The notes beneath the pieces were generated by a model. It saw only the letters and a program-made list of their open reading frames with translations, made no database searches and was not told where the DNA came from. From Candidatus Proelusimicrobium excrementi (GTDB lineage Bacteria; Elusimicrobiota; Elusimicrobia; Elusimicrobiales; Elusimicrobiaceae): a stretch of DNA of 64,000 bases. Below are positions 32,004 through 53,878 of this stretch, one piece after another. Positions within the stretch are counted from its first letter, which is position 1. Every line of letters begins with the position of its first letter. The stretch spans positions 258,692-322,691 of the forward strand of contig CAKUBV010000001.1 of the NCBI GenBank assembly GCA_934643455.1. Direction: 5' to 3'. The position numbers were made by a program, and so were the translations under genes.

Positions 32004-33296
32004 TTAGAATTTTTTTTGAATTCTGCGGTAAAGAATCCACTCCGCCAAACCTCTTAGCGTCAAATAAACCAAAAATGAAAGCCACAGCGCGTTATTGCCC
32101 AAACGTGAAGCCAGCAGGAAATAAAGCCCGAAGAACCCCGCCGCCGCCGAGAGCATGGCGTCGCGCATCTGCCTTGAAGCCGTTATCCCTACAAATATTC
32201 CGTCCCATAAAAAAGCCGCAAAGCCGGCCAGCGGTACCAATACGGCCCAAGCTTTATATTTAAGCGCGGCGGAAACGACTTCGCTCTTATCCGTCAAAAG
32301 CCCCAATATCCCGCCGGCGAAAACGGCGTAAACCGCCGTAAACATAAGGCTCAGCGCAATGCCCCAAGTAAATATTCTGCGGACAATAAACTTAAGTTTG
32401 CCGAAATCGCGCGCGCCGAAACACTTGCCGCTTAAAGCTTCCGCCGCAAAAGCGAAGCCGTCCATAATGTAAGAAAACAAAATAAAAAACTGCATCAGCA
32501 GATTGTTTGCGGAAAGATATATATCGCCGCTTCTGGCGGAAACCGACGTAAAAAACACCGTAACCGCTATAAGGGCGAAGCTTCTTAAAAATATGTCGCT
32601 GTTGACTTTAAAAAACGCGGCGAAACCGCGGAGGGATTTTAAAACCTCAAAGGAAATATATTTTTTTAGTTTTCCGTAAAATTTAAACCAAATGAAAGCC
32701 GATAAAATAAAAGCGAAAATCTGCGCCGCCAAAGAACCTAAAGCTATCCCCTTAATGTTTAGGCGAAAGACAAACACGAAAAGCAGACTGCATATGATAT
32801 TTACGACGTTCGCGCTTATTGATATCACCATTGGGACTTTGGCGTTTTGCATACCGATAAACCAGCCCGTAAACGCGAACATTGCCAAAGCGAAAGGAGC
32901 GGACCATATGTATATGAAAAAGTATTCCGCCGCTAAAGCTTGGGTCTGCGGGGAAGCCTGCAAAAAGAAGAAAGCCGCCTTAAATATAAAACTTTGCAAA
33001 AGTATTAAAATTACGCCGGCCGAAACCGCCGTAAAAAGCGCGCGCATAAGCACGTTTACGCATTCTTGTTCATTATTTGCGCCTACGGCCTGCGCCGTAA
33101 AGCCGCTGGTGCCCATCCTCAGGAAAGAAAAGTTCCAATACAGAAAATTGAATATTACGCCAGCCGCGCTTACGGCCCCTATATAAAGGAAAGAAGGCAA
33201 ATGCCCCGCTATGGCGGTATCGGCCATAGCCAAAAGCGGAACCGTAATATTGGTAATAATGTTCGGCACGGCCAAACGCAGAATTTCTTTATCCAT
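32004..33296 (-). CDS. MATE-family efflux transporter
   Basis: 12 TM; MATE-like N-terminus. Confidence 0.7.
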   Translation of the reverse strand: MDKEILRLAVPNIITNITVPLLAMADTAIAGHLPSFLYIGAVSAAGVIFNFLYWNFSFLRMGTSGFTAQAVGANNEQECVNVLMRALFTAVSAGVILILLQSFIFKAAFFFLQASPQTQALAAEYFFIYIWSAPFALAMFAFTGWFIGMQNAKVPMVISISANVVNIICSLLFVFVFRLNIKGIALGSLAAQIFAFILSAFIWFKFYGKLKKYISFEVLKSLRGFAAFFKVNSDIFLRSFALIAVTVFFTSVSARSGDIYLSANNLLMQFFILFSYIMDGFAFAAEALSGKCFGARDFGKLKFIVRRIFTWGIALSLMFTAVYAVFAGGILGLLTDKSEVVSAALKYKAWAVLVPLAGFAAFLWDGIFVGITASRQMRDAMLSAAAGFFGLYFLLASRLGNNALWLSFLVYLTLRGLAEWILYRRIQKKF

Positions 33297-33409
33297 ATAT
33301 TAAATTATAGAAAAAACCTCTTCAATAGTTCCGCAAAAGAAAACAATGGAAAAATATCTTATGATTTTCTAATATTATGGTTGATTATATATTTTGAGAG
33401 GTTACCCCC

Positions 33410-34804
33410 ATGCCAAGCCAAAAAAACGCCGCGGAAAACGAAAAACAAATTCCCGCCGGGCCCAACTCCGCAAACACGACAACCGGAGAAAACCTAAACG
33501 CTTCTTCCGAACAGCAGCTTCAGGGAACTTTCGGAGCGGATTCAAAAGCGCGGCCTCTTTCAGACGTTACCGCCGCGGCCAACTCCGGCAAACCGGCCCA
33601 AGGCAATTTGGCGCAAAATCCTTTTGTGGTGCCTGTCCCCGCGATACCCACGCAGGAAGGCCCTCTTGGCATACGCTATGATTTTAACGACGGCGCGCGC
33701 GTGCTTCTGCCGAAAGGCAAGTGGCATGTTCAGATAGAAGACGCCGAAAGCGACAATATCATTTTTGCCTGCGACAGCGGCGCGGGCTGGGTTTTAAGCG
33801 CGAAGAAATATTATATACCTTTCAGAATAAAAGTTTGGATACAGGGGGAAAAGGACCCCGTCCTTAATCACACTTTGGACTTAAGCGGAAAAGAAGTCCA
33901 AATAAAATTCCCGGTAGGCACTTTGGGCGATATAATCGGGTGGCTTCCTTACGCGGAAAAATTCCAAAAGAAGCACAACTGCGCGGCGGAGCTTACCCTG
34001 GCGCAGAATATGGTTGATTTATTTTCCGCTCAGTATCCCCAGATGTTTTTTACCGCTGTTCCGGGGAAAGTAAAATTCGAAAAGCCTTACGCCAGTTACC
34101 GCCTGGGTTTGTTTTTTAAGGGGAATAACACTGACCAGCCGGTTGATTTCCGCATGGTCGGCCTGCATAAAACGGCCGCTTATATTTTGGGCGTGGACCC
34201 CAGGGAAGAAGCGCCCCGCGTGCGCCTTGGCAATGAAAGAAAAATCAAAGAAAGATACGTTTGCATAGCCGTAAAATCCAGCTCTCAGGCTAAATTTTGG
34301 AACAACGGCTGCGGCTGGGAGCAAGTTGTAAAACATCTTAAAGACATGGGCTACCGCGTGCTTTGCATTGATAAAGAGCCCGTCGTCGGGCAAGGCTTTG
34401 TATGGAACCGTATGCCGCACGGCGCGGAAGATTTCACCGGCAATATTTCCCTGCAGGAAAGAGTGGCCCTTCTTGAACACGCCGATTTTTTTATAGGTCT
34501 TTCTTCCGGCTTAAGCTGGCTGGCATGGTGTACGCATATCCCCGTAATACTGATAAGCGGCTTTACATTGCCGATATGCGAGTTTTACACTCCTTACCGC
34601 GTCTACAGCAGCCACGGATGTATGGGCTGCTGGGATGATATAAACCTTAACTTTGACCATTACGATTTTCTATGGTGTCCTAGGTTTAAAAATACGGAAA
34701 GGCAGTACGAATGCACCCGCCTTATAACCGGCAAACAGGTTATAGGACATATAGACAGACTGATGAAAGAGAACAATTTAACTGCTCCTTCAAAAAAGAA
34801 TTAA
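33410..34804 (+). CDS. Autotransporter O-heptosyltransferase (TibC/Aah BAHT family), GT9-like, with about 90-aa low-complexity N-terminal extension
   Basis: GT9-like C-terminal half; immediately upstream of AIDA-type repeat autotransporter. Confidence 0.6.
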   Translation: MPSQKNAAENEKQIPAGPNSANTTTGENLNASSEQQLQGTFGADSKARPLSDVTAAANSGKPAQGNLAQNPFVVPVPAIPTQEGPLGIRYDFNDGARVLLPKGKWHVQIEDAESDNIIFACDSGAGWVLSAKKYYIPFRIKVWIQGEKDPVLNHTLDLSGKEVQIKFPVGTLGDIIGWLPYAEKFQKKHNCAAELTLAQNMVDLFSAQYPQMFFTAVPGKVKFEKPYASYRLGLFFKGNNTDQPVDFRMVGLHKTAAYILGVDPREEAPRVRLGNERKIKERYVCIAVKSSSQAKFWNNGCGWEQVVKHLKDMGYRVLCIDKEPVVGQGFVWNRMPHGAEDFTGNISLQERVALLEHADFFIGLSSGLSWLAWCTHIPVILISGFTLPICEFYTPYRVYSSHGCMGCWDDINLNFDHYDFLWCPRFKNTERQYECTRLITGKQVIGHIDRLMKENNLTAPSKKN

Positions 34805-34813
34805 AAATAAGAT

Positions 34814-37800
34814 TTGGAGATTATTATGGCTATACCCGAAACAAGCGCGTATATAGAAAAATTGGAATACACTTACTGCCGCAGCAGGAGCGCGGCGGCC
34901 TGCGGTTTAAGTTCAGGCGCGGCCAAAACAAGATGCGCCAGAATAATAAACGGCGGCAAAAAAGCCGTTTATACGGCCGCGGTAATAGCCATGTTAAACA
35001 ACAATTTTACGCCTTACGCATATGCAGGCGTCGTCGTACCCGCGGGGGAAACGGCTTCCGGCGTGATAGTTCAGGGCACCGATGAAGAGGTGAACGCCAT
35101 GCACGTTTACGGCTCCGCGCAAAATACCGAAGTTAATTATAACGGTTACCAGTATATTTATTCCGGCGGGGCGGCGGGGCAGACTACCGTCAATTCCGCG
35201 GGATACCAAATCATTTTCGGCGGCGGAAGGGCCGAAAACACCACAATCACCAACGGCGGCGAGCAAATTATTTCAAGCGGAGCGACGGCCGACGGCACCG
35301 ACGTTAATTACGGTGCATTTCAAACGGTTTACGCGGGCGGAAGTTCTTTAGCCGTCAGCCAAAACGGCGGAACGATAAACGCCTCCGCGGGCCAAAGCGG
35401 CGAAAACGCCGCCACGTATATCAGCGGCGTAAACCAAAACGGGGAAGTTTTTACGCTTCAAAATGGTTCGGCAAACAATTTTATAATTAATTCCGGCGGA
35501 TATCTAAACGTAAATTCCGACGGACGGGCTGACAACACGATAGTAAATTACCAAGGCGCGCACGGAGTTGAGGCCGGCGGTCAATCTTTAAACATTACCC
35601 AAAACGCCGGCGGCAACATAAACGCGTCCGCAGGTAAAGACTCCGCCAATATCACAACGGTAATAAGCGGCGTAAACCAAAACGGGGAAGTTTTTACGCT
35701 TTCCGGCGGCGCGGCGCAAAACTTTGTCGTTAATTCCGGCGGCGCACATACCGTAACGGCCGGGGGGAGTTCCCTCAATTTGGTGCAGAACGCCGGCGGC
35801 AACATAAACGCCGATATCGGCGCGGACGAGAGCCGTATTTCCACATATATCAGCGGCGTAAACCAAAACGGTCAAAACCTTACTTTGGAAAACGGATCCG
35901 CCAATAATTTTATTATCAATTCCGGCGGCTGGCAAAATATATTTTCCGGCGGACTGGTAAACAATACCGTTATAAACGGTTACGGTTCACAAGCGGTGTC
36001 TTTAGGCGGGAAGGCTTTAAATACGGTAATAAACTCCTACGGAAGCCAAGCCGTATATGAAGGCGGCTCCGCCGTGAGTGCGGTTGTAAGCGGAACAAGC
36101 GCTTACCAAACTATTTATTCCGGCGGAAAAGCCGAAAACGTTTTGCTGGCGGACTACGCCGTACAGAATATAGGCGCGGGAGCTTCGGCCGAAAATACGG
36201 TTATAGAAAAAGACGGCCTTCAGCGGATAGATTCTACCGGCGCGGCTTTTAACACTGAGGTAAATTCCGGCGGGGCCCAAAGCGTACTGGCGGGGGGAAG
36301 TTCCTTAAACGTAACACAAAACGCCGGCGGGAACGTCAATGCGGCGATAGGCGGCGACGGAGCTTATATAAGCGGCGTGAACCAGAACGGGGAAGTTTTT
36401 ACGCTTTCCGGCGGCGTCGCAAACAATTTTATACTAAATGACGGCGGATATCACTATGTGGCGGCGGGCGGAAGTTCTTTAAATCTTACGCAAAACGGCG
36501 GATATATAAACGCGGACGTCGCCAAAGACGGCGCAAATATTAACACCTATATCAACGGCGTCAACCAAAGCGGAATCGCCATGGCTCTTTCAAACGGAGA
36601 AGCCGAAAACTTTATAATCAACAAAGGGTCGCAGAGAGTTTCTTCCGGCGGGATTACCGTTTCAACCGTGTTAAATAATTCCTCATATCAATACGTCGGC
36701 CCGGGCGGAACGGCAAGTTCCACCGCAGTACACAGCGAGGCCGAACAGCATATATCTTCCGGCGGGGCGGCTTACGGAGCGGTTTTAAGCGGATTTTCCG
36801 CATATCAAATAATTTCCGAGGGCGGCCAGGCTCAGGAATCGGTACTTAACTCCGGCGCGATGCAATACGTCCTTTCGGGTGGATATGCCAGCCGGGCGGA
36901 AATCAACTCCGGCGCAAGCCAGGTAATTTCCTTCGGCGGTTACGCTTACGGCGCGCAGATTAATTCCGGCGGGGTGCAATACATTTCCACAGGCGGATAC
37001 GTAGATTCTTCCTACGTTAACGAACGCGCAAACCAAGCGATAGAATCGGGCGCGACGGCTACAAACACCGTTTTGGCTTCCGGCGCAAAATTAAACGTTT
37101 TTGCGGGCGGAAGTTCCTTAAACGTAATACAAAACTCCGGCGCAAACATTAACGCAAGTATAGGCGCGGGAAGCGAATATGCCGGCACATATATTACGGG
37201 CACCAATGAAGACGGCAACGATTTTATGCTTTCCGGTTCCGTAGCGAGCGGATTTATAATCAATGCCGGCGGAATGCAGCTTGTTGACTTAGGCGGATCG
37301 GCTGTTGATACCGTTATTAATTCCAACGGATATCAGAATATCTCGGCCGGGGGAAGCTCCTTAAATGTAACACAAAACGCCGGCGGGAATATAGACGTAA
37401 TAGTCGGCCAAGACTCCGCAAATGCAGGCACTTACGTCAGCGGTGTAAATCAGGACGGTGCGGATTTAAGCCTAATAAGCGGCGTCGCCAGCAATTTTAT
37501 AGTAAACTCCGGCGGTTCCCATACGGTATTATCAGGCGGAAAATCATTGGACGTCGTCATTAATTCCGGCGGGAACATCTATGCGGTAGTGGCAAAAGAC
37601 GAAGCCAATATCAATACTTACGTCAGCGGTATTAACCAAGAGGGGGCGGAATTAACTCTTTCCGGCGGCGTGGCGAGCAATTTTATAGTAAATTACTTCG
37701 GCAAGCAAATAATATCTTCCGGCGGAGAAGCTTACGATACGATTGTAAATGCGGACGGCCAGCAATGGATATCCGACGGCGGAAGCGCATATAACGCTCA

Positions 37801-40800
37801 AATCAATGAAGGCGGCGTACAGCAAATATCCGCCGGCGGTTATGCGAATAATACCGACCTTAAAGGATTGCAGATTATATCTGCCGGAGGTTCGGCGGAC
37901 GCTACGGCTATAAACGGCGGCATACAAAAGATTTCCGGCGGTACGGCAGAAACCACTTTAATAAATTCGGGAAGCCAGTTTATATATGCCGGCGGTTCGG
38001 CCATAGGGACGCAGGTGGCTTCGGGCGGATATCAAATAGTAGACGTGGGCGGCTTGGCCGACGGCACGGTATTATCTTCCGGCGGGGTCCAGCAGGTTTC
38101 AGCCGGAGGCAGCGCAGTTAATTTGGTGCAAAACGCCGGCGCGTATATAACCGCGGACGTAGCCAAAGACGAAGCCAATATTTCCACCTATATACAGGGC
38201 GTAAACCAAAGCGGAGCGGATTTAAGCCTTATAAGCGGAGTCGCAAGCAATTTTATAGTCAGCGCGGGCGGAGCGCAAAACGTCTACTCGGGCGGTATAG
38301 CTTTTGACACGGTTGTAGAATCAGGCGGCAGGCAAAGCGTTACGCAGGGCGGAAGCACGGTAAACGTAATACAAAATTCCGGCGCGTATATAGACGTTGA
38401 CGTCGCCAAAGACGCCGCCAATATCAATACGGCCGTAACGGGAACCAACCAAAACGGCGGCGCGATGAGCCTTTCAAACGGCGTAGCGGAAAACTTTGTA
38501 ATAAATACCGGCGGGAAACAGAACGTCTACTCCGGCGGTATAGCCAACAACACTCTTGTAAGCGGCGTACAGACGGTGGTCATGGGCGGCTCGGCCAATT
38601 ATACGGAAGTGGCGGGCGGATTTCAGCTTGTTTCTTCCGGCGGTTTGGCTAAAAACGCTTCCGTAAGCATGATGGGCGTACAGGACGTTACCGGCGGCAC
38701 TGCCGAAGGCACGATTATAGGCGGCTTCGGCACGCAGACCGTGGCCGCGGGCGGAAGCGCAGTAAGCGCGGTTATAAACGCGGGCGGACTGCAGAATGTA
38801 TCTTCCGGCGGAACCGTAAATGATACTCAAGCCAATGATTCGGCCGTGCAAAACATTATGGGCGGCGTAGCCAATTCCACCTCGCTTAATTCCGGCGCGG
38901 TGCAGAATATAACCGCCGGCGGTACGGCAAGAAATACGGAAGCCGCCGGGGCCGTGCAGAACGTCATCAGGGGCATCGCCATAAACACAAATCTTAACGA
39001 AGGCGCGGCCCAAAACGTATCTTCCGGCGGCGTAACAAGCCACACTTATGTAAATTCCGGCGCGGTTCAAAACGTATATGAGGGCGGTACGGCCGTATCA
39101 GCTGCGCTAAGCGGCGGCGTTCAGAATATAGCCGGCCTGGCCAGCGGAGCTTTAATAGCCCAAGGCGGCGTACAAAATATTTTAGCCGGCGGATATGCCG
39201 AGGACGTAACTGCGGCTTCCGGCGGAACCCAAAACATCAACGCTTCCGCTTCAGCCAAAAACGTATATGCGGAGAGCGGAACCGTCAACCTGCTTTCAGG
39301 CGGTTCTTTGCAGGGCTATTCCGCGCAAGGCGGACTGCTGAACGTATACGGGGATAATCATATTTCCGGCGATATGGTTTTAAGTGCCGGCGCGGCAGTT
39401 AATATAGCGCAAGATTCCGCGGGATTTACAAATTTAAGCGCAGATAATATCCAGGCCGATAACGCCTTAATCAAAATGAACGTAAACCTTGAAACCGGGG
39501 AAAGCGACAGGCTGACCGTAAACGGAAATTATAAAGGCCAAACGGTACTTGCCTTAAGCAATACCGCAGATGTCGCCAAAGAAACAACCGGCGACGGCAT
39601 AAAACTGGTGGAGTTTGCTTTCGGCGCGCAAGTTGACGGAGATTTTGAATTGTTGGGCGGCAAATGGGACGAAGGCGGCTATGAGTATCTTTTGCACCAA
39701 GGCACGGCGGCGGGGGAAGGTTCGGATTATTACCTGCGCAATTCCATGGTATATACCGACGTGTTTAAGAGTATGCTTAATATCCCTTTGATGAACAGCG
39801 TAATAGCCAGAAGCGGAATGAACTCCCTGCAAAAAAGAATGGGCGATTTGCGAAATATGACGGAAGGCTCCAACCAAAACGGAATATGGGCCAGAACCTA
39901 TTATAAGGATATGCGCGTAAAAGACCTCGTTGAAACGGATATGAGCCTTTTCGGCGTTGAAGCGGGTTATGACTGGCTTTTTACGCCCAATGAACCCACC
40001 AAACTATACGCCGGCGTCATGATAGGCTACGCAAACGCGGGTTCAATAAAAACCGAAAAAGAAAACGGCTCCGTCTACGGCGACGGAAAAGGAACATCGC
40101 CGAGCGTCGGTATATACGCCACTTTGGTAAATGACGACAAATGGTTTGTGGATTTAGCGGCAAGAAACTTTTGGACCAAACTGGATATGACGCACTACTC
40201 AGCTTCCGGCAGTCAGCTTAAATTTGAGCCGGAGCGAAGCATTTTCGCCGTAAGTTTGGAAGGCGGCAAGGAATTTACTCAGGATTTGGGCGGGGATTCC
40301 TTTATCCGCATAGAACCAAAAGCGGAAATTGAGTATATGTCCGCTTCTTCCGACGAAACAAAAGTAAAAGGCGGAACCGGCCCCTTGGCATATGATAAAG
40401 CCAATTATTTAAGCGCAAAAGGCGCGCTTATGGTTGCTTACAGCATGCGCCAGGCCAACGGACTGCTTATAGAGCCGCTTTTGGAACTTGCCTACAGATA
40501 TGAGTTTATGGGCGAAGGCGACGTAAGCTACGGCGGAGCCAAAGAAACCACAAGCCTTAAAGGCGGCACGCTTGAAGCGGGGCTCGGTATAAATATGCAG
40601 CTTACGGAAAACCTCTACTGGCACGCCGTCGGCAACTATGAAGCCGGCGACAAATTGCAAGGCTGGGGCGTAAACGCCGGCATCAGGTACGCTTTCGGGG
40701 GGATTTCCTTTGGCGGCGGAAGCAAAAACAGCAAGAAAGCCCGCAAAGAATCTTTCTACGAATACAACAAATACGACCGTGGCTATTACGACCGTGATTA

Positions 40801-40924
40801 TGACGAAAAGCCTAAAAAGGAAAAACAAAAAAAGGTAAAGAAGACCAAAAAGAACGATAAAACTTACGAAAATAAAACCGACAGCAACGAAATACGCAAC
40901 GTAAGAAGACGTTATGAGTTTTAA
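34814..40924 (+). CDS. AIDA-I/TibA-like autotransporter adhesin (2036 aa)
   Basis: Dozens of imperfect about 19-aa SGG...N/T...V repeats; C-terminal beta-barrel (GIWARTYY ... NAGIRYAF); extended N-terminal signal region. Confidence 0.7.
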   Translation: MEIIMAIPETSAYIEKLEYTYCRSRSAAACGLSSGAAKTRCARIINGGKKAVYTAAVIAMLNNNFTPYAYAGVVVPAGETASGVIVQGTDEEVNAMHVYGSAQNTEVNYNGYQYIYSGGAAGQTTVNSAGYQIIFGGGRAENTTITNGGEQIISSGATADGTDVNYGAFQTVYAGGSSLAVSQNGGTINASAGQSGENAATYISGVNQNGEVFTLQNGSANNFIINSGGYLNVNSDGRADNTIVNYQGAHGVEAGGQSLNITQNAGGNINASAGKDSANITTVISGVNQNGEVFTLSGGAAQNFVVNSGGAHTVTAGGSSLNLVQNAGGNINADIGADESRISTYISGVNQNGQNLTLENGSANNFIINSGGWQNIFSGGLVNNTVINGYGSQAVSLGGKALNTVINSYGSQAVYEGGSAVSAVVSGTSAYQTIYSGGKAENVLLADYAVQNIGAGASAENTVIEKDGLQRIDSTGAAFNTEVNSGGAQSVLAGGSSLNVTQNAGGNVNAAIGGDGAYISGVNQNGEVFTLSGGVANNFILNDGGYHYVAAGGSSLNLTQNGGYINADVAKDGANINTYINGVNQSGIAMALSNGEAENFIINKGSQRVSSGGITVSTVLNNSSYQYVGPGGTASSTAVHSEAEQHISSGGAAYGAVLSGFSAYQIISEGGQAQESVLNSGAMQYVLSGGYASRAEINSGASQVISFGGYAYGAQINSGGVQYISTGGYVDSSYVNERANQAIESGATATNTVLASGAKLNVFAGGSSLNVIQNSGANINASIGAGSEYAGTYITGTNEDGNDFMLSGSVASGFIINAGGMQLVDLGGSAVDTVINSNGYQNISAGGSSLNVTQNAGGNIDVIVGQDSANAGTYVSGVNQDGADLSLISGVASNFIVNSGGSHTVLSGGKSLDVVINSGGNIYAVVAKDEANINTYVSGINQEGAELTLSGGVASNFIVNYFGKQIISSGGEAYDTIVNADGQQWISDGGSAYNAQINEGGVQQISAGGYANNTDLKGLQIISAGGSADATAINGGIQKISGGTAETTLINSGSQFIYAGGSAIGTQVASGGYQIVDVGGLADGTVLSSGGVQQVSAGGSAVNLVQNAGAYITADVAKDEANISTYIQGVNQSGADLSLISGVASNFIVSAGGAQNVYSGGIAFDTVVESGGRQSVTQGGSTVNVIQNSGAYIDVDVAKDAANINTAVTGTNQNGGAMSLSNGVAENFVINTGGKQNVYSGGIANNTLVSGVQTVVMGGSANYTEVAGGFQLVSSGGLAKNASVSMMGVQDVTGGTAEGTIIGGFGTQTVAAGGSAVSAVINAGGLQNVSSGGTVNDTQANDSAVQNIMGGVANSTSLNSGAVQNITAGGTARNTEAAGAVQNVIRGIAINTNLNEGAAQNVSSGGVTSHTYVNSGAVQNVYEGGTAVSAALSGGVQNIAGLASGALIAQGGVQNILAGGYAEDVTAASGGTQNINASASAKNVYAESGTVNLLSGGSLQGYSAQGGLLNVYGDNHISGDMVLSAGAAVNIAQDSAGFTNLSADNIQADNALIKMNVNLETGESDRLTVNGNYKGQTVLALSNTADVAKETTGDGIKLVEFAFGAQVDGDFELLGGKWDEGGYEYLLHQGTAAGEGSDYYLRNSMVYTDVFKSMLNIPLMNSVIARSGMNSLQKRMGDLRNMTEGSNQNGIWARTYYKDMRVKDLVETDMSLFGVEAGYDWLFTPNEPTKLYAGVMIGYANAGSIKTEKENGSVYGDGKGTSPSVGIYATLVNDDKWFVDLAARNFWTKLDMTHYSASGSQLKFEPERSIFAVSLEGGKEFTQDLGGDSFIRIEPKAEIEYMSASSDETKVKGGTGPLAYDKANYLSAKGALMVAYSMRQANGLLIEPLLELAYRYEFMGEGDVSYGGAKETTSLKGGTLEAGLGINMQLTENLYWHAVGNYEAGDKLQGWGVNAGIRYAFGGISFGGGSKNSKKARKESFYEYNKYDRGYYDRDYDEKPKKEKQKKVKKTKKNDKTYENKTDSNEIRNVRRRYEF
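35030..39300 (+). repeat. Array of about 57-bp imperfect tandem coding repeats (AIDA-type 19-aa repeats)
   Basis: Recurrent GGCGG...AATTCCGGCGG / SGG.A.NT.VNSGG.Q.V periodicity. Confidence 0.6.
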
Positions 40925-40985
40925 ACGGCCCGTAAGTTAAACCCGTCATCTTGAAAAAAGCGTTTTCCGCTTTAATATATTCTCT

Positions 40986-41435
40986 ATGACGCGGATAAAT
41001 TTAATAGAGCCGGAAAAACTTTACGATCAACACCTTATTGCCGAATACAGGGAAATTTTTATGGTGCCCGCCGCTTTAAAAGGCTCTTTAAAGGCGAAAA
41101 ACGGCGCGCGCCTTGATGACATTCCCCAAAGTTTTACTTTGGGAAAAGGGCACGTAAGATTTTTCTATGATAAAGGCAAGTATCTTTACAAACGCTACGC
41201 GCTTTTGCGGGCGGAAATGATAAAGCGCGGTTTTAAGCCGGATATAAACAGGAAATTCCCCAAAGAAATATTTATAGAAAACAAATTATTTAACGACTGG
41301 CGGCCTGATAAACGCGCCATCACCGTTATTACTCAAAGACTTAAGCAAAAGATTGCCCAAAAGCCCGCTTGGTACCGCAAAAGCGTGCAGGGGAAAATGA
41401 CAGAAAATAAAAAACAAATCAAATCATTGGGATAA
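40986..41435 (+). CDS. denV: Pyrimidine-dimer DNA glycosylase (T4 endonuclease V family)
   Basis: MTRINLIEPEKLYDQHLIAEYREI ... GHVRFFYDK ... RGF closely matches recalled T4 DenV MTRINL..DQHLMAEYRE..GHVTFFYDK..RGF. Confidence 0.75.
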   Translation: MTRINLIEPEKLYDQHLIAEYREIFMVPAALKGSLKAKNGARLDDIPQSFTLGKGHVRFFYDKGKYLYKRYALLRAEMIKRGFKPDINRKFPKEIFIENKLFNDWRPDKRAITVITQRLKQKIAQKPAWYRKSVQGKMTENKKQIKSLG

Positions 41436-41669
41436 ATTTTAGGGCCATAAAAATAAATTTATGGGCTTAATTATATCGCTAAAATCAATTTTTACGCCAA
41501 AGCTTTCACATATTCCGCTGACAAGTGCTTAATTTTATTTACATAAATAAACAGGGCCAAAAAACCTATATGCAAAGCGGAAATTTAACTTTTAATAAAA
41601 ATCGGGCAAAATTTTGATAAATTTTATATAATATTTATGTCAAAGAAATACAATTTGCAGTTTTAACAC

Positions 41670-41741
41670 GCCCCCATAGCTCAATGGATAGAGCACCTGC
41701 CTTCTAAGCAGGGGATATAAGTTCGATTCTTATTGGGGGTA
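41670..41741 (+). tRNA. tRNA-Arg (anticodon TCT)
   Basis: Cloverleaf folded by hand: 7-bp acceptor (G1-U72 wobble), D stem GCTC/GAGC, anticodon stem CCTGC/GCAGG with loop CTTCTAA, T arm ATAAG-TTCGATT-CTTAT; no encoded CCA. Confidence 0.8.
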
Positions 41742-41803
41742 TGATTTTTGGAATATAGTTGAAAATTTTGTGCCTTTTTTAGGGCACAAACGGACACAAA
41801 AAG

Positions 41804-41830
41804 GGGGATAATGGATGCTATCCCCTTTTT
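41804..41830 (+). terminator. Rho-independent terminator downstream of tRNA
   Basis: GGGGATA-atggatgc-TATCCCC then TTTTT. Confidence 0.45.
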
Positions 41831-42024
41831 ATCTTTTTAGCCTTTTTTTCCTATCAATTTGATAGATTTTGATAATTACCGATAATTGCTTTTAGCACCT
41901 ATGTTTTTTGAAGCTTGCCCCGGTTGTATACGGGGCTTTTTTGCGGGGTTTGGGACAAAATGTCAAATAAATTATAAATATAATAAATATTTTTGTATTT
42001 ATAAAAATAATTAAAAAATATTAC

Positions 42025-42053
42025 TTGACAAACTGTCAAATATTTATTATAAT
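42025..42053 (+). promoter_or_regulatory. Perfect consensus sigma70-type promoter (TTGACA-17 nt-TATAAT) with palindromic -35 (TTGACAaacTGTCAA)
   Basis: Read directly; drives small ORF at 42097. Confidence 0.55.
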
Positions 42054-42096
42054 ATTAGTGTAAGGTAAAGAAAACCTTACAAGTGAGGACCAAAAA

Positions 42097-42186
42097 ATGA
42101 AAAAGGAAAAACAAGCAAACAAAAAACTGCCGACGGTGAAAGTAAAAAAAATAGTAGTTACCTTGGTAGTAAGCGACAATAAATAA
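42097..42186 (+). CDS. 29-aa lysine-rich small protein MKKEKQANKKLPTVKVKKIVVTLVVSDNK (not in ORF track)
   Basis: GAGGA SD 9 nt upstream; consensus promoter upstream; hairpin terminator immediately downstream. Confidence 0.3.
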   Translation: MKKEKQANKKLPTVKVKKIVVTLVVSDNK

Positions 42187-42193
42187 TTAGCTT

Positions 42194-42219
42194 GGGGGAG
42201 CAAGCCTCCCCCTGTTTTT
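42194..42219 (+). terminator. Rho-independent terminator after small ORF
   Basis: GGGGGAG-caagc-CTCCCCC then TGTTTTT. Confidence 0.5.
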
Positions 42220-42316
42220 CCTAGCAGAAATTTTTTTAAAAAGATACAATTTAATTGCCTTTTATAGGGGAGACTCTTTGCACATTGTCGCTGAGTTGGT
42301 CCTCACGCGATAACGC

Positions 42317-42347
42317 AGGGGACGGTTTTACCCGTCCCCTAATTTTT
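42317..42347 (+). terminator. Hairpin plus T-run; possible 3' end of a small RNA
   Basis: AGGGGACGG-ttttac-CCGTCCCCT then AATTTTT. Confidence 0.35.
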
Positions 42348-42447
42348 AAAAATAAAGAAAAGCCCCGGGTGTTGGAGCACCCGGGGCAAAGTCGGAGCTT
42401 GCATTCCCGACTGTCTTTATTATATCAATTTGCCAAGGTAAAGCACT

Positions 42448-42615
42448 ATGACCATAAAAGAACTTTTAGAGAGAGATTTTAACGGCAATGTTTCAGCTTT
42501 TGCCAAGTATTACGATATTTCACGCCAGACGGCTTATAACCTTTTGGACGGAAAAACCAAACCCCAGCTTAAGCTGAGGGCAAGGCTTAAAAGAAAGGGC
42601 GTTAAGTTTGATTAA
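42448..42615 (+). CDS. Small HTH DNA-binding protein (55 aa), phage regulator-like (not in ORF track)
   Basis: MTIKELLERDFNGNVSAFAKYYDISRQTAYNLLDGKT HTH-like motif. Confidence 0.4.
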   Translation: MTIKELLERDFNGNVSAFAKYYDISRQTAYNLLDGKTKPQLKLRARLKRKGVKFD

Positions 42616-42642
42616 CAGCTTTCTTTATATGTGGGTGGGGGA

Positions 42643-42828
42643 TTATTCCCCGCACCCGCAGGTAAAATGCTTTCTAAGTTTGTATTCTTCTCTTTTGCCT
42701 TTGTTCCAACACTGAACCGGGCGCAAATACCCCACCACGCGGCTGAAAACCTCGCACGGTGTGCCTTTGGCCTGCCCTTTTAATTTCTTAAGCTCCGCTA
42801 TTTTAGCGGCTATTTCACTTCTTTCCAT
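42643..42828 (-). CDS. Standalone NrdD C-terminal-like glycyl-radical mini-protein (61 aa)
   Basis: SRVVGYLRPVQCWNKGKREEYKLRKHF resembles recalled NrdD C-terminus RRVCGYLGSPDARPFNAGKQEEVKRRVKHL; 4 Cys. Confidence 0.4.
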   Translation of the reverse strand: MERSEIAAKIAELKKLKGQAKGTPCEVFSRVVGYLRPVQCWNKGKREEYKLRKHFTCGCGE

Positions 42829-42837
42829 TTCCTTTAT

Positions 42838-43059
42838 TTACTCCTTACAAGCTTTGTTTTTAGGTTCGCAAACGCAGGCTATGCCTACCACCTTGCCCCA
42901 GTTGCTGGCGTTAAGCTTCATTATTGCCGGATCGGCAAAATCCCACGGCGGGAAGCATACCGCCGCGTTACTTCTTGGAGAGGAAGCGGCGCACCCACTC
43001 ATTACGCTCATTATCAGACATAGCAGCACCGCTTTTATAGCCGTTTTCATATCTCTCAC
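42838..43059 (-). CDS. Outer-membrane lipoprotein, o-spanin (Rz1-like) candidate
   Basis: Lipobox LIMSVMSG-C; embedded out of frame in the 3' half of the upstream TM-coiled-coil gene. Confidence 0.4.
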   Translation of the reverse strand: MRDMKTAIKAVLLCLIMSVMSGCAASSPRSNAAVCFPPWDFADPAIMKLNASNWGKVVGIACVCEPKNKACKE

Positions 43060-43225
43060 GCTCCTTTATCTCTTGCTTTAAAGCTTTACGCTTTTGGGCC
43101 TCTTTTCCGCTGGCCCGGCCATTTAGATATATCCAAACGCACAAAAGCCCAAGGGCGGCGATTATGCCGCCCCAAAAGTACCCGCTGCCCATAAGCGGGC
43201 TAATCAAGCTTATTAGTGCCGACAT
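42968..43225 (-). CDS. i-spanin (Rz-like) candidate: N-terminal TM plus charged coiled coil
   Basis: Architecture and overlap with lipoprotein gene. Confidence 0.4.
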   Translation of the reverse strand: MSALISLISPLMGSGYFWGGIIAALGLLCVWIYLNGRASGKEAQKRKALKQEIKERERYENGYKSGAAMSDNERNEWVRRFLSKK

Positions 43226-43520
43226 CAGCCGCCCCTAATTTTTCTATTTTCCCTTTAATAAGCTTGTCATAGCCAAGCTGCGCCGCCGCAACGGAGCAAA
43301 GCCACACAAGCCAGAAAGAAGTTTTTATAAACTCCTTCGCGCCGTCTTGGACGACAACCGCGCAACCGCCGGCTATGGCAAGCATAATAATGAACTTTAC
43401 GGCCGCCGGCAGTTTATCAATGGCGGGGATTTGCTTCAGTCCCTCCATAATACCGTTGGTAAGCAAGGCTACTAATGCGCCTAAGAGCACAACGGATACA
43501 ACAAACGTCAATATACTCAT
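43200..43520 (-). CDS. Holin candidate (multi-TM, about 106 aa)
   Basis: 2-3 TM helices, small size, directly upstream of spanin pair. Confidence 0.4.
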   Translation of the reverse strand: MSILTFVVSVVLLGALVALLTNGIMEGLKQIPAIDKLPAAVKFIIMLAIAGGCAVVVQDGAKEFIKTSFWLVWLCSVAAAQLGYDKLIKGKIEKLGAADVGTNKLD

Positions 43521-43597
43521 GTTTACTACCTCCTTATTTATTTTTGATTATTTTAATTTGCTACAATAAATTAACTTTAAAATGGCAGGTAAATGCT

Positions 43598-44428
43598 ATG
43601 ACAAACTTAACATCTAATATAAATCCCTTTGAGGGGATAAAATTTGTAGATAATGCTGGTGTGGAACGTTGGTCCGCAAGAGATTTGGCTGTTCTTATAG
43701 GTTATGAAGAATGGCGCAACTTTGAAAATGTTCTAGAAAAAGCAATAATTTCTGCTGAAAACAGTGGGGCTAATAGAGATCATCATTTCGTTGAAGCCAC
43801 CAAAATGATAAATTTACCTAAAAATGCTATTAGAGAAATTAAGGACTATGCCCTTTCCCGTTATGCTTGTTACCTTATTATCCAAAACGCAGATCCTTCC
43901 AAACCTATGGTAGCAGCTGGTCAAACATATTTTGCGATACAAACACGTCGTCAAGAGCTAACGGATACACAACCACAATTAAATGAGGATAAGAAACGGC
44001 TTCTTTTGCGTGATGAGATGAAATTTCACAATAAGCAATTAGCCTCTGCCGCAAAAAATGCAGGTGTTGACTCTCCGTTAGACTATGCAATCTTTCAAGA
44101 TTATGGCTATAAGGGTCTTTATGGCGGTCTTGGAATGAAAGATATAAAAAGCAGAAAAGGCCTCAAAAAAAGCCAAAGCATATTAGACCACATGGGTAGC
44201 ACAGAGCTCGCCGCCAATTTATTTAGAGCGACACAAACAGAGGAAAAAATCCGTCGTGATAACATACAAGGCAAGGCTAAAGCAAGTCAAGTCCACCATG
44301 AAATAGGGCGTAAGGTTAGGCAAACAATAAAGGATATAGGCGGAACTATGCCAGAAAATCTCCCAACTCCAAAAGAAAGTATCAAACAAGTAGAACGTAA
44401 AGTAAAAAAACTAGAAAATAAGAAATAA
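43598..44428 (+). CDS. DinD/Bro-N-like DNA-damage-inducible protein D family (antirepressor-like)
   Basis: ERWSARDLAVLIGYEEWRNFENVLEKA Bro-N-like N-terminus; 276 aa similar to DinD; start chosen at in-frame ATG 43598. Confidence 0.6.
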   Translation: MTNLTSNINPFEGIKFVDNAGVERWSARDLAVLIGYEEWRNFENVLEKAIISAENSGANRDHHFVEATKMINLPKNAIREIKDYALSRYACYLIIQNADPSKPMVAAGQTYFAIQTRRQELTDTQPQLNEDKKRLLLRDEMKFHNKQLASAAKNAGVDSPLDYAIFQDYGYKGLYGGLGMKDIKSRKGLKKSQSILDHMGSTELAANLFRATQTEEKIRRDNIQGKAKASQVHHEIGRKVRQTIKDIGGTMPENLPTPKESIKQVERKVKKLENKK

Positions 44429-44614
44429 TTTCTCAAAAAGAGTAAGCCCCGCCCGCAAGAGCGGGGCTTTTTACTCTCTAATTTCAAATTGTCAAAGAAC
44501 AAAAGCTTAAAAATCGTTCACATCTTGGGGTAAATATGAACTAAAAGGGCGTTTTCGTTCATATTTGCCCGGTTATAGGCAAAATCTATTACTATTTAGG
44601 AAAAGTAATAGGTT

Positions 44615-45031
44615 TTAGCTTATTTCAATCTCCAGTTCCTCGCCGCCTAGATTTACCACCCAAAGCATTGTAAACAGCTTTTGAAACGTTTCGCGGCTGT
44701 CTAAAACCTTGCCCTTTACGCGGTTTTTGCCTACCAAAATACACCCTTCCGTGTCTTCCGGCGTATTGCCGGAATGGATAAGAACGCCGGTAAAGCCCGG
44801 CACATTTTCCAAACGCGGCATTAACTTGCCAAAGCGCAGGCTTTCGGTCAGCTTAATTTTGTACTTACCGGCGGGGATAGCCGTCTTGCCCGGGATTTTA
44901 ACCCCGGGCTTTCTTACGGTATCTTCCAGCGTATCGCAAAAATATTTGCCGTCTATGGACATCCGCCCGATAGTATAATCAGGCCCTTTAAATATACGTT
45001 TAATGATGATATTCATGGATACGCTCCTCAA
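44615..45031 (-). CDS. YkuD-like (L,D-peptidase fold) small protein; endolysin candidate
   Basis: LIHSGN ... TEGCILVG resembles L,D-transpeptidase HG ... SHGC(I/V)R active-site arrangement; adjacent to lysis genes. Confidence 0.3.
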   Translation of the reverse strand: MRSVSMNIIIKRIFKGPDYTIGRMSIDGKYFCDTLEDTVRKPGVKIPGKTAIPAGKYKIKLTESLRFGKLMPRLENVPGFTGVLIHSGNTPEDTEGCILVGKNRVKGKVLDSRETFQKLFTMLWVVNLGGEELEIEIS

Positions 45032-45239
45032 CTTCGTTTAAACGCTTATGCGCGCTCTTTACGCTTTCTTCTGTGCGCGTCATACGCTCCTGCAAATGAT
45101 TGTATCTATCCTGTTTCTTTTCCAGCTGGTCAAGGCGGAACTCCACCATTTTTTGAAATGTGTTCAGCTTTCCCACAAAGATCCCGATAGTGATTAACTG
45201 CGCCGCAATGCTTAAGCCAAGTTCAACGCTGATGTTCAT
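45000..45239 (-). CDS. Small TM plus coiled-coil phage protein
   Basis: N-terminal hydrophobic helix, charged helical C-terminus. Confidence 0.3.
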   Translation of the reverse strand: MNISVELGLSIAAQLITIGIFVGKLNTFQKMVEFRLDQLEKKQDRYNHLQERMTRTEESVKSAHKRLNEVEERIHEYHH

Positions 45240-45250
45240 TGTTATGCTCC

Positions 45251-46279
45251 TTAAGCCGCCTGAGGGACGAAAGTGCCCTCAAAAGTGGCGTTTGACATTG
45301 TAAAACCGTCGGCGTAAAATTTAACATTGTCGCCTTGCGCCACCTGTATAAGCGTTTCCCCGGCAAAGTTACTGCCGGCGTTATTGCTCCAAGTGTATGT
45401 AGTGGCGGAGCTGTTGGAAACATAATAATCCCGGATATCTTTGCCGTTTATGCTGATTTTGGCGTAACCCGCCGAAGTGGCAGCGGCGGTAAATACCGCG
45501 CTCCTTATTTGTATCCAGCCTGCCGCCGGGCAAGTATAATTTGCGTTTGCGGCTTTGCTGAACTCTACGGCGTTCGTATAATCGGGCGTCGGCGGCTTTG
45601 CGGCGGAAATAAGGCCCTCTAAATAGCTTACGGCGTCTGACAAAGCTTTGGAGCTGGGATAAGTGCCCGTGCCCGCGGCGGTATAATCTGATGTTTTGTT
45701 TGAGATGTTTTCTTTCTTCTCGTCGTGTAAATCGCTTACGCCGCTGTCCGCCAAAACAAAAGGTGCGCTCGCGGGCGTGTAATTCGTCAAATACTTTGCG
45801 GAGCGGCTTATCCTTAACTCGTCTATTACCATTCCGGCCTTGTCGCCGGCGGTTATACCGGACATATACCATCCGCGCAAATCCAAAGTTACGCCCTGCC
45901 AGCCAGTGCCGGACATTACCAACGAGCCGTTTTCATAGTAGTATAAAGTATCTCCGCTTCTTACTACGGCAACATTCTTTTTATTGGTGTTGATGTAATC
46001 AGCTACTGAGGATTTTAAAAACTTTCCGCCAAAGGCTATAGCCGCATAGCCGTGGCATTGTATCCCGTGCCTTGCGCTGGTGGCGGATAATGTTTCGTAA
46101 ACGATTTTATCCGTAAAATCCATTGTATATTCGCTGTTATAACCGGCTTTTGGGTTTTTAACCGTAAATTCAATGGTAAAATCCCCGGGCAGGACAAGGC
46201 TTTCATGGGCGTCAAATTGGAACAAAGCACCTGCGGACGACATAGCGTTTTTCGCCGCTAAGCCAAAGCCGGGCGTCAA
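45251..46279 (-). CDS. Tail fibre/receptor-binding protein with LamG-like jelly-roll domain
   Basis: FDAHESLVLPGDFTIEFTVKN LamG-like start; S/T/A/N-rich C-terminal half. Confidence 0.4.
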   Translation of the reverse strand: MTPGFGLAAKNAMSSAGALFQFDAHESLVLPGDFTIEFTVKNPKAGYNSEYTMDFTDKIVYETLSATSARHGIQCHGYAAIAFGGKFLKSSVADYINTNKKNVAVVRSGDTLYYYENGSLVMSGTGWQGVTLDLRGWYMSGITAGDKAGMVIDELRISRSAKYLTNYTPASAPFVLADSGVSDLHDEKKENISNKTSDYTAAGTGTYPSSKALSDAVSYLEGLISAAKPPTPDYTNAVEFSKAANANYTCPAAGWIQIRSAVFTAAATSAGYAKISINGKDIRDYYVSNSSATTYTWSNNAGSNFAGETLIQVAQGDNVKFYADGFTMSNATFEGTFVPQAA

Positions 46280-46317
46280 CTCCTCCCACGTTACATCGTT
46301 GGCGTCCGCAAGCTGAT

Positions 46318-46548
46318 TTATAACGGCTCCGCCGGCGTCGTTTTAAAAGTATAAACGGTTTCGCCTACGGTTACGGTGTCGCCGTCTGCGGGATTTGCGC
46401 TAAAAGAAATATCGCCCGTGGCGGCAATGTATACGGTTTCGTCCTTCGCTTTTACGATGTAACCGTGTACCCTGCGGGGAGTGTTATCGTAAAACTCGCC
46501 GGGTACGCCGATAGGTAATTCTTTATTTACAACAGTTTGTATAGCCAT
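46318..46548 (-). CDS. Hypothetical 76-aa phage structural protein (possible N-terminal part of fibre via frameshift)
   Basis: Only 38 nt separates it from downstream fibre ORF. Confidence 0.25.
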   Translation of the reverse strand: MAIQTVVNKELPIGVPGEFYDNTPRRVHGYIVKAKDETVYIAATGDISFSANPADGDTVTVGETVYTFKTTPAEPL

Positions 46549-48929: not shown

Positions 48930-48943
48930 TTGCTTTTTTCCTC

Positions 48944-49813
48944 TTAATCAAAAACTATTACCGGGCGTTTTATGCAGTGGCAGTTTATCAGGGTTCCCGG
49001 ATAGCCCTTTTCGCCGGTTTTAGGGTCGACTACAACGGGAAGCGCCAAATCCAATATTTGCCCGGCTAAAACATCCCTGTGATAAACCCTTTCCCATTGA
49101 GGCTTTTTGGAACCGTAAGTATAAACCCACTCATATTTGCTTACGCCCGCGTCCGCCAGTTTTGAGCGGCTTAAAGCTTCATACACTTTTTTGGTTTGGT
49201 CGGACGCTATCAAATCGATACGCTTATCCAATTTGCCGCTTATTTTGCTTAAGCCCTCTTTTAAAGAAGTTATGCCCTCGGCGTTTATTACGCTTCTAAA
49301 AACAAGCCCGGCTATTTCTTCAAAAAACTGGGAATTTATGCTCTTAATCAAATTAACATTCGCTTCTATGGACGCTTTGGCGGTCCGCCTGTCCGCCCGG
49401 CTGTAAAAATTATTTATAAAGTTAATCTCAAAATTAGTCTTTTCCCCGTTTATAAGCCCAAAGGATTTTAAAGAACTTTTGACGCTGATATTTGCGTAAT
49501 CTTCCTGCCGGGCTACAAAACCTTTTGCCAAACCCTCGGCTTTGCCGGTAAATACGGCGTAAAACTCTTTATTAAGCTTGTCCAGCTCCGCTTTTAAAAC
49601 TTCCGCGCTGTCCGCGTCCTGAGCGTAAAGCGCTTTAATATTTTCATTTTCCCGGCGGTAAACCTTTATAATATCGGCTATGGTCTTACGGCTCATTTCC
49701 GTGCTTAAAGCCGAAAGCTCCCGTTTATACCATTTGCGTATGCCCTCGCTGGGGAACAGTTCCCCGCCGTAAAGGATACTTTGCCTTTTTACTCTTCGCT
49801 CTTTGCTCGCCAT
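48944..49813 (-). CDS. Phage head morphogenesis protein, Mu F/SPP1 gp7 family
   Basis: C-terminal YHRDVLAGQILD ... CHCIKRP MuF-like motif; follows portal gene. Confidence 0.6.
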   Translation of the reverse strand: MASKERRVKRQSILYGGELFPSEGIRKWYKRELSALSTEMSRKTIADIIKVYRRENENIKALYAQDADSAEVLKAELDKLNKEFYAVFTGKAEGLAKGFVARQEDYANISVKSSLKSFGLINGEKTNFEINFINNFYSRADRRTAKASIEANVNLIKSINSQFFEEIAGLVFRSVINAEGITSLKEGLSKISGKLDKRIDLIASDQTKKVYEALSRSKLADAGVSKYEWVYTYGSKKPQWERVYHRDVLAGQILDLALPVVVDPKTGEKGYPGTLINCHCIKRPVIVFD

Positions 49814-49914
49814 CAGTTGAAATCCGCCTGTTTTTTAGCTATACTATTATTAGCGAAATAAGAACCGCCTAGGGCGTAGGGTTTAGGGTTGGCATTGCCA
49901 AAGCATTTTCCCGC

Positions 49915-52065: not shown

Positions 52066-52073
52066 TTTTGCAC

Positions 52074-53492: not shown

Positions 53493-53496
53493 TTGC

Positions 53497-53850
53497 TTAT
53501 ACCTCGTCTTCTATGTCCACCGCCGCCGCTTTCGCCATTTTTATGAGCGTTTCCGTGCTTAGCTTGCTTAAATCCTTGCCGACGCTTATTTCCGTCTTGC
53601 TTTCTACCTTATCCGCCGGCTTTTGCCCTATCGTGTCCCTGATAACTTCAAAAGCTTTAATATTGCCGTTTTCCGCGGTTTTTATCAGCTTTAAGGCTAT
53701 GTACTCCGCCCGGGTGTAACTCTTGCCGCTTTCCGTTTTTATTTCTTGCCTGAGCCCCGCTTCCAGCAAGTCTTTAAAGGCCTTTAACTCCCGCCTTTTC
53801 TTGCCGCTCGCTACACCGCCTTTACGGCCCTTTTTTCTCGCTTCGCTCAC
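53497..53850 (-). CDS. Putative terminase small subunit
   Basis: 117 aa, basic N-terminus, immediately upstream of terL. Confidence 0.35.
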   Translation of the reverse strand: MSEARKKGRKGGVASGKKRRELKAFKDLLEAGLRQEIKTESGKSYTRAEYIALKLIKTAENGNIKAFEVIRDTIGQKPADKVESKTEISVGKDLSKLSTETLIKMAKAAAVDIEDEV

Positions 53851-53878
53851 GCTTCGAACGGGTTTTAAGTTCTTTGCA

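Follow-up and report, generated by a model that had tools for sequence, protein, structure and literature searches.

We analyzed a 64-kb stretch of contig CAKUBV010000001.1 (the window) and focused on two neighboring genes that appear to encode a protein O-glycosyltransferase and the surface adhesin that it modifies. The locus contains two co-directional open reading frames (ORFs) on the + strand, at 33410-34804 (464 amino acids) and at 34814-40924 (2036 amino acids from the first possible start). The original prediction for this DNA had placed a heptosyltransferase of the TibC/Aah type directly upstream of an autotransporter with 19-amino-acid repeats, and this arrangement is present. We think it very probable that the two genes form an operon for a cytoplasmic iron-finger glycosyltransferase of the bacterial autotransporter heptosyltransferase (BAHT) family and its substrate, a 2032-amino-acid autotransporter of type Va. 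The features of the locus are as follows:

33410..34804, + strand: gene for a BAHT-family O-heptosyltransferase, a homologue of TibC and Aah (464 amino acids; TIGR04414, PF21129, PF01075)
33410..33616, + strand: N-terminal extension of the transferase, residues 1-69, low complexity and predicted to be disordered (pLDDT, the AlphaFold2 confidence score; no Pfam match)
33617..34801, + strand: conserved BAHT core with N-terminal beta-barrel, GT-B catalytic domain, and iron-finger (from the alignment to TibC)
34815..34818, + strand: GGAG ribosome-binding site of the adhesin gene, within the 21-nt intergenic spacer (read from the sequence)
34826..40924, + strand: gene for a type Va autotransporter adhesin (2032 amino acids from the ATG at 34826)
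34826..35026, + strand: extended, cysteine-containing leader that ends in a hydrophobic segment with a predicted AYA|G cleavage site (read from the sequence)
35069..39343, + strand: passenger, about 75 rungs of 19-amino-acid AIDA-type strand-loop-strand repeats (TIGR04415, PF16168, autocorrelation)
39398..39694, + strand: autochaperone region, AC_1 or pertactin-like (PF18883, 49 bits; PF03212, 38 bits)
39884..40696, + strand: 12-stranded autotransporter beta-barrel whose last strand ends in GVNAGIRYAF (PF03797, 96 bits)
40697..40921, + strand: 75-amino-acid post-barrel tail, which follows GVNAGIRYAF and ends in RRRYEF

A GAGAGG ribosome-binding site precedes the transferase's ATG (33410) by about 9 nt. 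The likely start of the adhesin is the ATG at 34826, which is 7 nt past the GGAG site and 21 nt past the stop codon of the transferase. The TTG at 34814 is the start of the mechanical ORF only, and the gene calls on six contigs from the same species use the ATG at 34826. When we scanned 33200-41800 for promoters and terminators, the counts were no higher than in shuffled sequences, and we do not claim any regulatory element.

The host is an uncultured species of Elusimicrobiaceae that is found in human gut metagenomes, which agrees with the original prediction of an anaerobe outside the Enterobacteriaceae. The pyrophosphate-dependent phosphofructokinase (PPi-PFK) that is encoded near the locus has 80-81% identity to its counterparts in Candidatus Avelusimicrobium faecicola and Elusimicrobium minutum Pei191; for four other named Elusimicrobiaceae, the identity is 78-80%. 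Among the genome matches listed for the transferase, the closest are from 21 metagenome-assembled genomes (MAGs) of Elusimicrobiaceae from guts and rumens (67-80% identity). The identical transferase protein is found on at least 14 contigs. All six of those that we retrieved are metagenome assemblies with the same gene order, and one is named as a Hadza sample.

These six independent assemblies (L081-L086) break at the same points within the adhesin gene: L082 and L085 after 209 amino acids, and L083 and L084 after 1849 amino acids, while L081 has gaps filled with N at around residue 1855 and in the tail. The shared breakpoints suggest that the sequence there is common to paralogues or varies among strains. 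We also considered whether the adhesin might be split in two, as in the gene calls for L081 (1859 and 141 amino acids), and ruled this out, given the runs of N in that scaffold.

The transferase

The transferase is a clear member of the BAHT family. It scores 582.1 bits against the NCBIfam equivalog TIGR04414 (hepto_Aah_TibC, named "autotransporter strand-loop-strand O-heptosyltransferase"), for which the cut-off is 200 bits, and it covers positions 2-373 of the model's 374. In Pfam, it matches both PF21129 (TibC_1st, 111 bits) and PF01075 (GT9, 33 bits). Residues 69-453 match the structures of TibC (4RB4 and 4RAP) with E = 4e-173 and a single one-residue gap; by BLASTP, the alignment to TibC residues 5-388 has 61% identity over 385 residues (516 bits). 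AlphaFold2 places the strands of a TibC-type N-terminal beta-barrel at residues 89-166, with a pLDDT above 90.

The GT9 domain, along with weak matches to the models for RfaQ and for heptosyltransferases I and III, might instead indicate a lipopolysaccharide (LPS) inner-core heptosyltransferase, of the WaaC/WaaF/WaaQ type, that lies beside an adhesin gene by chance. However, the LPS heptosyltransferase models (TIGR02193, TIGR02201, and NF007742) give just 15-25 bits, against cut-offs of 170-467, and BLASTP against WaaC and WaaF from E. coli MG1655 gives 24.6 and 21.2 bits, as compared to 516 bits for TibC. What the transferase shares with WaaC and WaaF is a distantly related GT-B/GT9 fold, with similarity of 21-25 bits, and the presumed donor, ADP-heptose. 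They lack TibC's N-terminal barrel and its four-cysteine iron-finger, both of which are present in the window's transferase, and their acceptor is a lipid-linked sugar rather than a serine in a protein. Also, an adhesin gene adjoins the transferase gene in all 22 of the Elusimicrobiota loci that we compared. The original prediction had named grouping with WaaC and WaaF as the outcome that would speak against it; neither BLASTP nor the LPS models show such a grouping, and the enzyme is of the TibC/Aah type. We rule out the LPS explanation based on these sequence comparisons and give it practically no chance of being correct.

The roles of many residues in TibC are known from mutagenesis or from the structure (PMC4358343). 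The corresponding residues in the window's enzyme are:

TibC Asp-110, catalytic base: D174
TibC Thr-226, sugar-nucleotide binding: S291 (a conservative change)
TibC Lys-230, sugar-nucleotide binding: K295
TibC Arg-286, sugar-nucleotide binding: R351
TibC Pro-300, restricts TibC to ADP-D,D-heptose: S365
TibC Trp-305, sugar-nucleotide binding: W370
TibC Cys-339/342/358/370, iron ligands: C404/C407/C423/C435

All of the residues that are needed by mutagenesis of TibC (D110, K230, R286, W305, and the four cysteines) are kept. Across an alignment of 25 sequences from five or more phyla, the catalytic base and the residues that contact ADP-heptose are invariant. The four cysteines of the iron-finger are invariant in this alignment as well; iron binding itself is predicted from their conservation. 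The serine at the position of Pro-300 is also the state of Aah (S294), and the P300S mutant of TibC takes both epimers of the heptose (PMC4358343). Because S365 is as in Aah and TibC P300S accepts both epimers, we predict that the window's enzyme tolerates both. Over the thumb and the iron-finger, the alignment to TibC has a gap of just one residue, and by analogy to the TibC dodecamer, with its beta-hairpin thumb and iron-finger, the transferase probably forms a ring-shaped oligomer.

Thus, the transferase resembles TibC from enterotoxigenic E. coli (4RAP/4RB4; PMC4358343) in its flattened N-terminal beta-barrel, its GT-B core, its four-cysteine iron-finger, its catalytic aspartate, and the lysine, arginine, and tryptophan that bind the sugar nucleotide, and the tibC gene, too, is immediately upstream of the gene for a repeat autotransporter. 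It differs from TibC by the serines in place of P300 and T226 and by about 64 additional, disordered residues at its N terminus.

This N-terminal extension had been described in the original prediction as a disordered region of 90 amino acids that was peculiar to this gene. The extension exists and appears to be disordered, but it is shorter, at about 65-69 amino acids: residue 69 of the transferase aligns to residue 5 of TibC, and residues 1-69 have a pLDDT of 22-38 and no secondary structure in the AlphaFold2 model. A Pfam scan of the extension gave no match. That it is part of the protein is supported by the ATG with GAGAGG upstream, by the open frame, and by similar lengths in independent gene calls of relatives. 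Because it has no hydrophobic segment, its sequence indicates that it is not a signal peptide. A motif (S.A....DVTA..N) is common to the extensions from Elusimicrobiaceae, and the extension is otherwise variable among homologues. Any role that we might assign to it would be conjectural.

Nor is the extension a peculiarity of this gene. As a crude, upper-bound measure of its length, we used the number of residues from the most upstream methionine to a conserved PTQ motif:

Window: 79
Elusimicrobiaceae (21 loci): median 62
Lentisphaerota (22 loci): median 54
Desulfobacterota: median 72
Betaproteobacteria: median 64
Enterobacterales: 19-25

Outside the Enterobacterales, long, variable, and low-complexity N termini are the rule, and by these sequence comparisons, the short N terminus of TibC and Aah is the exception within the family.

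The adhesin

The passenger of the adhesin is built from AIDA-type repeats. TIGR04415 (O_hepto_targRPT, a repeat that is named as a heptosylation target) matches 25 stretches of the adhesin, for a total of 439 bits, and the Pfam family AIDA (PF16168) matches 16 stretches (296 bits). At a lag of 19 residues, the identity within the passenger is 0.235, as compared to 0.096 +/- 0.007 in shuffled sequences, or about 19 standard deviations above. The autocorrelation has secondary peaks at lags of 62 and 81, which arise from a recurring insert of 43 amino acids that interrupts the rungs and creates super-repeats of 62 and 81 amino acids. Tandem Repeats Finder did not find a tandem array in the DNA of the adhesin gene, because the repeats are too diverged at that level (the DNA repeat families have 60-84% identity) and the period is visible only in the protein. 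The spacing between copies is always a multiple of 3 nt.

The passenger (residues ~86-1510) is 17% glycine, 12% alanine, 11% serine, and 11% asparagine, with no cysteine. TibA is heptosylated on Ser-313 (in N-S-G-G) and on Ser-322 (in T-S-A-A). The window's passenger contains 160 serines, with 30 SGG and 50 S[GA][GA] motifs, so its sequence offers plenty of candidate acceptor sites of the type that was mapped in TibA.

Upstream of the passenger is a leader of about 67 amino acids. In the Elusimicrobiaceae, a conserved, cysteine-rich region of about 45 amino acids precedes the hydrophobic core of the signal peptide. The consensus among relatives is ENIYSS..VQALEQEYCSSCSAAVVSS...SRIYNGGR.AVYTATVGAMLANN, and the leader of the window's adhesin is ETSAYIEKLEYTYCRSRSAAACG...ARIINGGKKAVYTAAVIAMLNNN. 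The partner adhesins of L001-L021, the Elusimicrobiaceae loci, keep this leader, although the match is loose in the window and in L007, and in the Endomicrobiaceae locus L022 it is unrecognizable. A Pfam scan of the leader did not find ESPR.

The autochaperone and the beta-domain were detected by Pfam only if the C-terminal 541 amino acids were scanned alone; a scan of the full-length protein reported only AIDA. In the AlphaFold2 model, the pLDDT of the barrel is mostly above 85 (with means of 75-98 for blocks of 10 residues) up to its terminal phenylalanine. This aromatic residue is not the last residue of the protein: 75 more residues follow. The last 74 of these include 17 lysines, 8 tyrosines, 7 arginines, 7 glutamates, 6 asparagines, and 6 aspartates. 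The tail is modeled with a pLDDT of about 30, which indicates disorder, and then as a possible helix over the last 12 residues. A Pfam scan of the tail found no match.

The organization of the adhesin is as in the AIDA-I adhesin of diffusely adhering E. coli, which is modified by another TIGR04414 member, Aah: a passenger of 19-amino-acid repeats (PF16168, TIGR04415) is followed by an autochaperone and a beta-barrel. However, the window's adhesin scores just 484 bits against the model for AIDA-I (NF033176) and 319 bits against the model for Ag43/Cah (NF033177), where the curated cut-offs are 1200 bits, and AIDA-I lacks the extra 43-amino-acid inserts and the post-barrel tail. Relative to TibA, the window's adhesin is about twice as long, with a long, unrelated leader and the tail of 75 amino acids past the barrel. 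The hosts differ as well: the window is from a gut anaerobe of the Elusimicrobiaceae that is not known to be pathogenic.

Post-barrel tails are not confined to this protein. P0121, which is 93% identical, has the same tail. All 14 of the complete partner adhesins from Elusimicrobiota extend 10-228 residues past the barrel, and further relatives are similar (we noted tails in L006, L009, L022, L008, L014, L015, L021, and P0121-P0155). Five of these tails contain a peptidoglycan-binding OmpA domain (56-68 bits): one each in L006, L022, and P0145, and two in L009. Several tails from Elusimicrobiota end with a conserved motif (DYS.MEEIER.WREGK). Homology between this motif and the window's tail was not established by eye, and phmmer found no matches to the tail. 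All 16 of the BAHT-partner autotransporters that we checked from outside the Elusimicrobiota, seven of which are enterobacterial, end at the terminal phenylalanine or tryptophan of the barrel.

Two other arrangements were observed among the relatives. First, in L009, which is from an Elusimicrobiaceae MAG, a single BAHT gene is followed by two tandem AIDA-repeat autotransporters (9349-16234), each with a C-terminal OmpA domain. Second, the AIDA-repeat proteins that are encoded beside BAHT genes in four loci from Lentisphaerota/Victivallaceae (L061, L069, L072, and L073) do not end with an autotransporter-type aromatic residue, and when we used the window's barrel as the query, no beta-domain was detected in them. 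These proteins may use another route for secretion or anchoring.

The post-barrel tail would be located in the periplasm. C-terminal periplasmic domains have been described for trimeric autotransporters from outside the Proteobacteria, namely SLH domains in Veillonella and OmpA domains in Streptobacillus (bioRxiv 10.64898/2026.01.22.700529). In those proteins, as in the window's adhesin, the sequence runs past the outer-membrane barrel into the periplasm, and some relatives from Elusimicrobia share the OmpA domain. However, the trimeric autotransporters are of type Vc, whereas the window's adhesin is a monomeric, type Va protein whose tail is disordered and charged, with no recognizable domain. 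In the literature, we did not find a description of C-terminal periplasmic domains on monomeric type Va proteins or in Elusimicrobia. We tentatively suggest, without quite favoring the idea, that the type Va adhesins that depend on BAHTs form a separate architectural subclass in the Elusimicrobiota, marked by a cysteine-rich leader instead of ESPR, an end signal for the barrel that is internal to the protein, and a periplasmic tail. The tail would tether or stabilize a huge glycosylated adhesin in the envelope, by analogy to the periplasmic domains of trimeric autotransporters, and the extension of the transferase, with its DVTA motif, would belong to the same lineage-specific adaptation. Any novelty here concerns the anchoring of the adhesin in the envelope rather than the glycosylation system.

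Distribution and neighborhood of the pair

The original prediction implied that this system would be a rarity outside of the Enterobacteriaceae, which is not the case. When we scanned species genomes, 561 of the first 600 pattern matches were confirmed as relatives, so relatives of the transferase are present in at least 561 species genomes from many phyla. The 80 best homologues are from Elusimicrobiota, Lentisphaerota, Verrucomicrobiota, Planctomycetota, Desulfobacterota, Deferribacteres, Selenomonas (Negativicutes), and Beta- and Gammaproteobacteria. Burkholderia and Laribacter were already among the known carriers of BAHTs in 2014 (PMC4358343), and copies from Elusimicrobia and Endomicrobia are already labeled as "autotransporter strand-loop-strand O-heptosyltransferase" in public sources (NCBI). 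A host outside the Enterobacteriaceae is not unusual for a BAHT system, and the window's enzyme is a clear but ordinary member of a widely distributed family. The studies of BAHTs in the literature that we searched are confined to E. coli, Citrobacter, and Burkholderia, and none of them links BAHTs to Elusimicrobia.

The pairing with an adhesin is also conserved. In all of the Elusimicrobiota loci (22/22), an AIDA-repeat ORF is directly downstream of the BAHT gene on the same strand, and across the 80 loci, an AIDA-repeat ORF adjoins the BAHT gene in 52. In a neighbor-joining tree of the conserved core, which has no bootstrap values and is only indicative, the window's enzyme lies within a monophyletic clade that comprises 21 species of Elusimicrobiaceae and neighbors Endomicrobia, apart from the enterobacterial clades. 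The tree favors long residence in the phylum over recent import.

We considered recent import because several observations might point to it, that is, to a pair that was acquired horizontally from Enterobacteriaceae or other Proteobacteria, perhaps in something like a pathogenicity island, and that is not native to Elusimicrobia. The 61% identity to E. coli TibC is as high as the identity to Endomicrobium (60-63%), and a tRNA-Arg gene and a prophage lie some 750 nt from the operon. We also looked for synteny of the flanking genes with other species of Elusimicrobiaceae and did not find it: the flanks in the window (MatE, PPi-PFK, RmuC, and the pyrimidine-dimer glycosylase Pyr_excise) recur only on contigs from the same species, so the pair sits in a variable neighborhood. 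However, the same flanks are present on the same-species contigs that reach far enough (L081 downstream and L082 upstream). The operon's GC content, at 49-53% versus about 46% in its surroundings, might suggest import as well, but a higher GC content is expected from a repeat protein that is so rich in glycine and alanine. Besides its place in the tree, the pair has features that are specific to the lineage: the adhesin's leader and post-barrel tail are common to those Elusimicrobiaceae species. Overall, recent import seems improbable, and a native pair in a variable neighborhood is the better explanation.

Several other features of the window are worth recording. Positions 1-10641 contain the terminal part of a T7-like podovirus prophage, with a head-tail connector, a scaffold-like protein, a major capsid protein, a gp14-like internal virion protein, and large proteins that lack annotation; a tyrosine integrase (9730-10641) closes this part. 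The pyrimidine-dimer glycosylase gene (40986-41435) lies between the adhesin and a tRNA-Arg(TCT) gene (41670-41741), which is followed by a second prophage-like block (41670-54800 with the tRNA gene included). This block encodes holin-like small ORFs, a Bro-N protein, DUF5675, a DUF2213/MuF_C protein, a Mu F-like protein, a portal protein that is fused to a PBECR3 nuclease domain, and a large terminase. Upstream of the operon, 16673-20570 encodes two tandem membrane proteins with LtaS-like sulfatase domains, and 23824-28719 encodes a 1631-amino-acid protein in which just one domain is recognized, a trypsin-like peptidase at the C terminus (residues 1391-1521). The ~1390 residues that precede this domain have no match in Pfam, and the protein is conserved on the same-species contig L082. 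Near the end of the window, 59720-63751 encodes a set of surface-polysaccharide proteins: an O-antigen-ligase-like protein (Wzy_C), a Wza-type exporter (Poly_export/SLBB), and a Wzz/GNVR tyrosine-kinase-like protein.

Proposed mechanism and significance

The family membership of the transferase, the conservation of its catalytic and metal-binding residues, the repeat architecture of the adhesin, the adjacency of the genes, and the conservation of the pair across Elusimicrobiota are all observed directly. By homology with TibC-TibA and Aah-AIDA-I, heptose would be the sugar, serines in the repeats would be the acceptors, the enzyme would be oligomeric, and the adhesin would act in adhesion. In the cytoplasm, the enzyme, probably as a ring-shaped oligomer, would transfer heptose from ADP-glycero-manno-heptose to serines in the turns of the repeats (S-G-G or S-A-A). 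The modified precursor would be exported by Sec via its long leader, BAM would insert the C-terminal barrel, and the beta-helical passenger of about 1400 amino acids, now glycosylated, would be displayed as an adhesin or an aggregation factor.

Four points weigh against this account. First, because the adhesin is below the cut-offs for AIDA-I and Ag43, its sequence makes it a relative, and not an orthologue, of any characterized adhesin. Second, when we compared GmhA, GmhB, HldE, and HldD from E. coli to all of the ORFs in the window and in 86 loci, we did not find these ADP-heptose biosynthesis genes in the 64 kb or within 8 kb of the loci; there were just two weak matches to generic epimerases, which were not credible. 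The literature that we searched also gave nothing usable on heptose in Elusimicrobia. Third, we did not find biochemical data in that literature for any BAHT from outside the Proteobacteria. Fourth, the BAHT homologue BimC from Burkholderia is reportedly needed for the actin-based motility that depends on BimA. Because BimC serves BimA, the BAHT family would not be restricted to adhesins with AIDA-type repeats.

The lack of heptose genes in the sequence that was available and the reported requirement for BimC in motility that is driven by a different kind of autotransporter could also be explained if the window's enzyme used another donor sugar, or if it had a non-catalytic role as a chaperone or in targeting, perhaps in a host that does not make ADP-heptose. 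However, the residues that contact ADP-heptose and the catalytic base are conserved, and indeed invariant in the alignment of 25 sequences. Also, the window covers only 64 kb of the genome, and even in E. coli, the genes for heptose biosynthesis are dispersed and usually not linked. We consider a different donor or a non-catalytic role to be very improbable, and we favor O-heptosylation of the adhesin by the transferase.

So far, studies of how autotransporter adhesins are O-heptosylated in the cytoplasm have dealt only with pathogenic Proteobacteria. The practical value of this locus is modest: it provides a well-supported annotation and natural variants for studies of structure and function in BAHTs and in type Va secretion, namely the N-terminal extension, the serine at the stereoselectivity site, and the post-barrel tails. 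Specialists may find leads in the lineage-specific leader, in the tail past the barrel, and in the extension of the transferase. More broadly, this locus and the relatives in at least 561 species genomes suggest that the enzyme and its substrate are a common module for surface decoration in gut anaerobes of many phyla. Human gut metagenomes, Hadza samples among them, contain the window's Elusimicrobiaceae lineage, and ADP-heptose is a known agonist of innate immunity. If the system is active, these commensals would display heavily heptosylated proteins on their surface and must make ADP-heptose.

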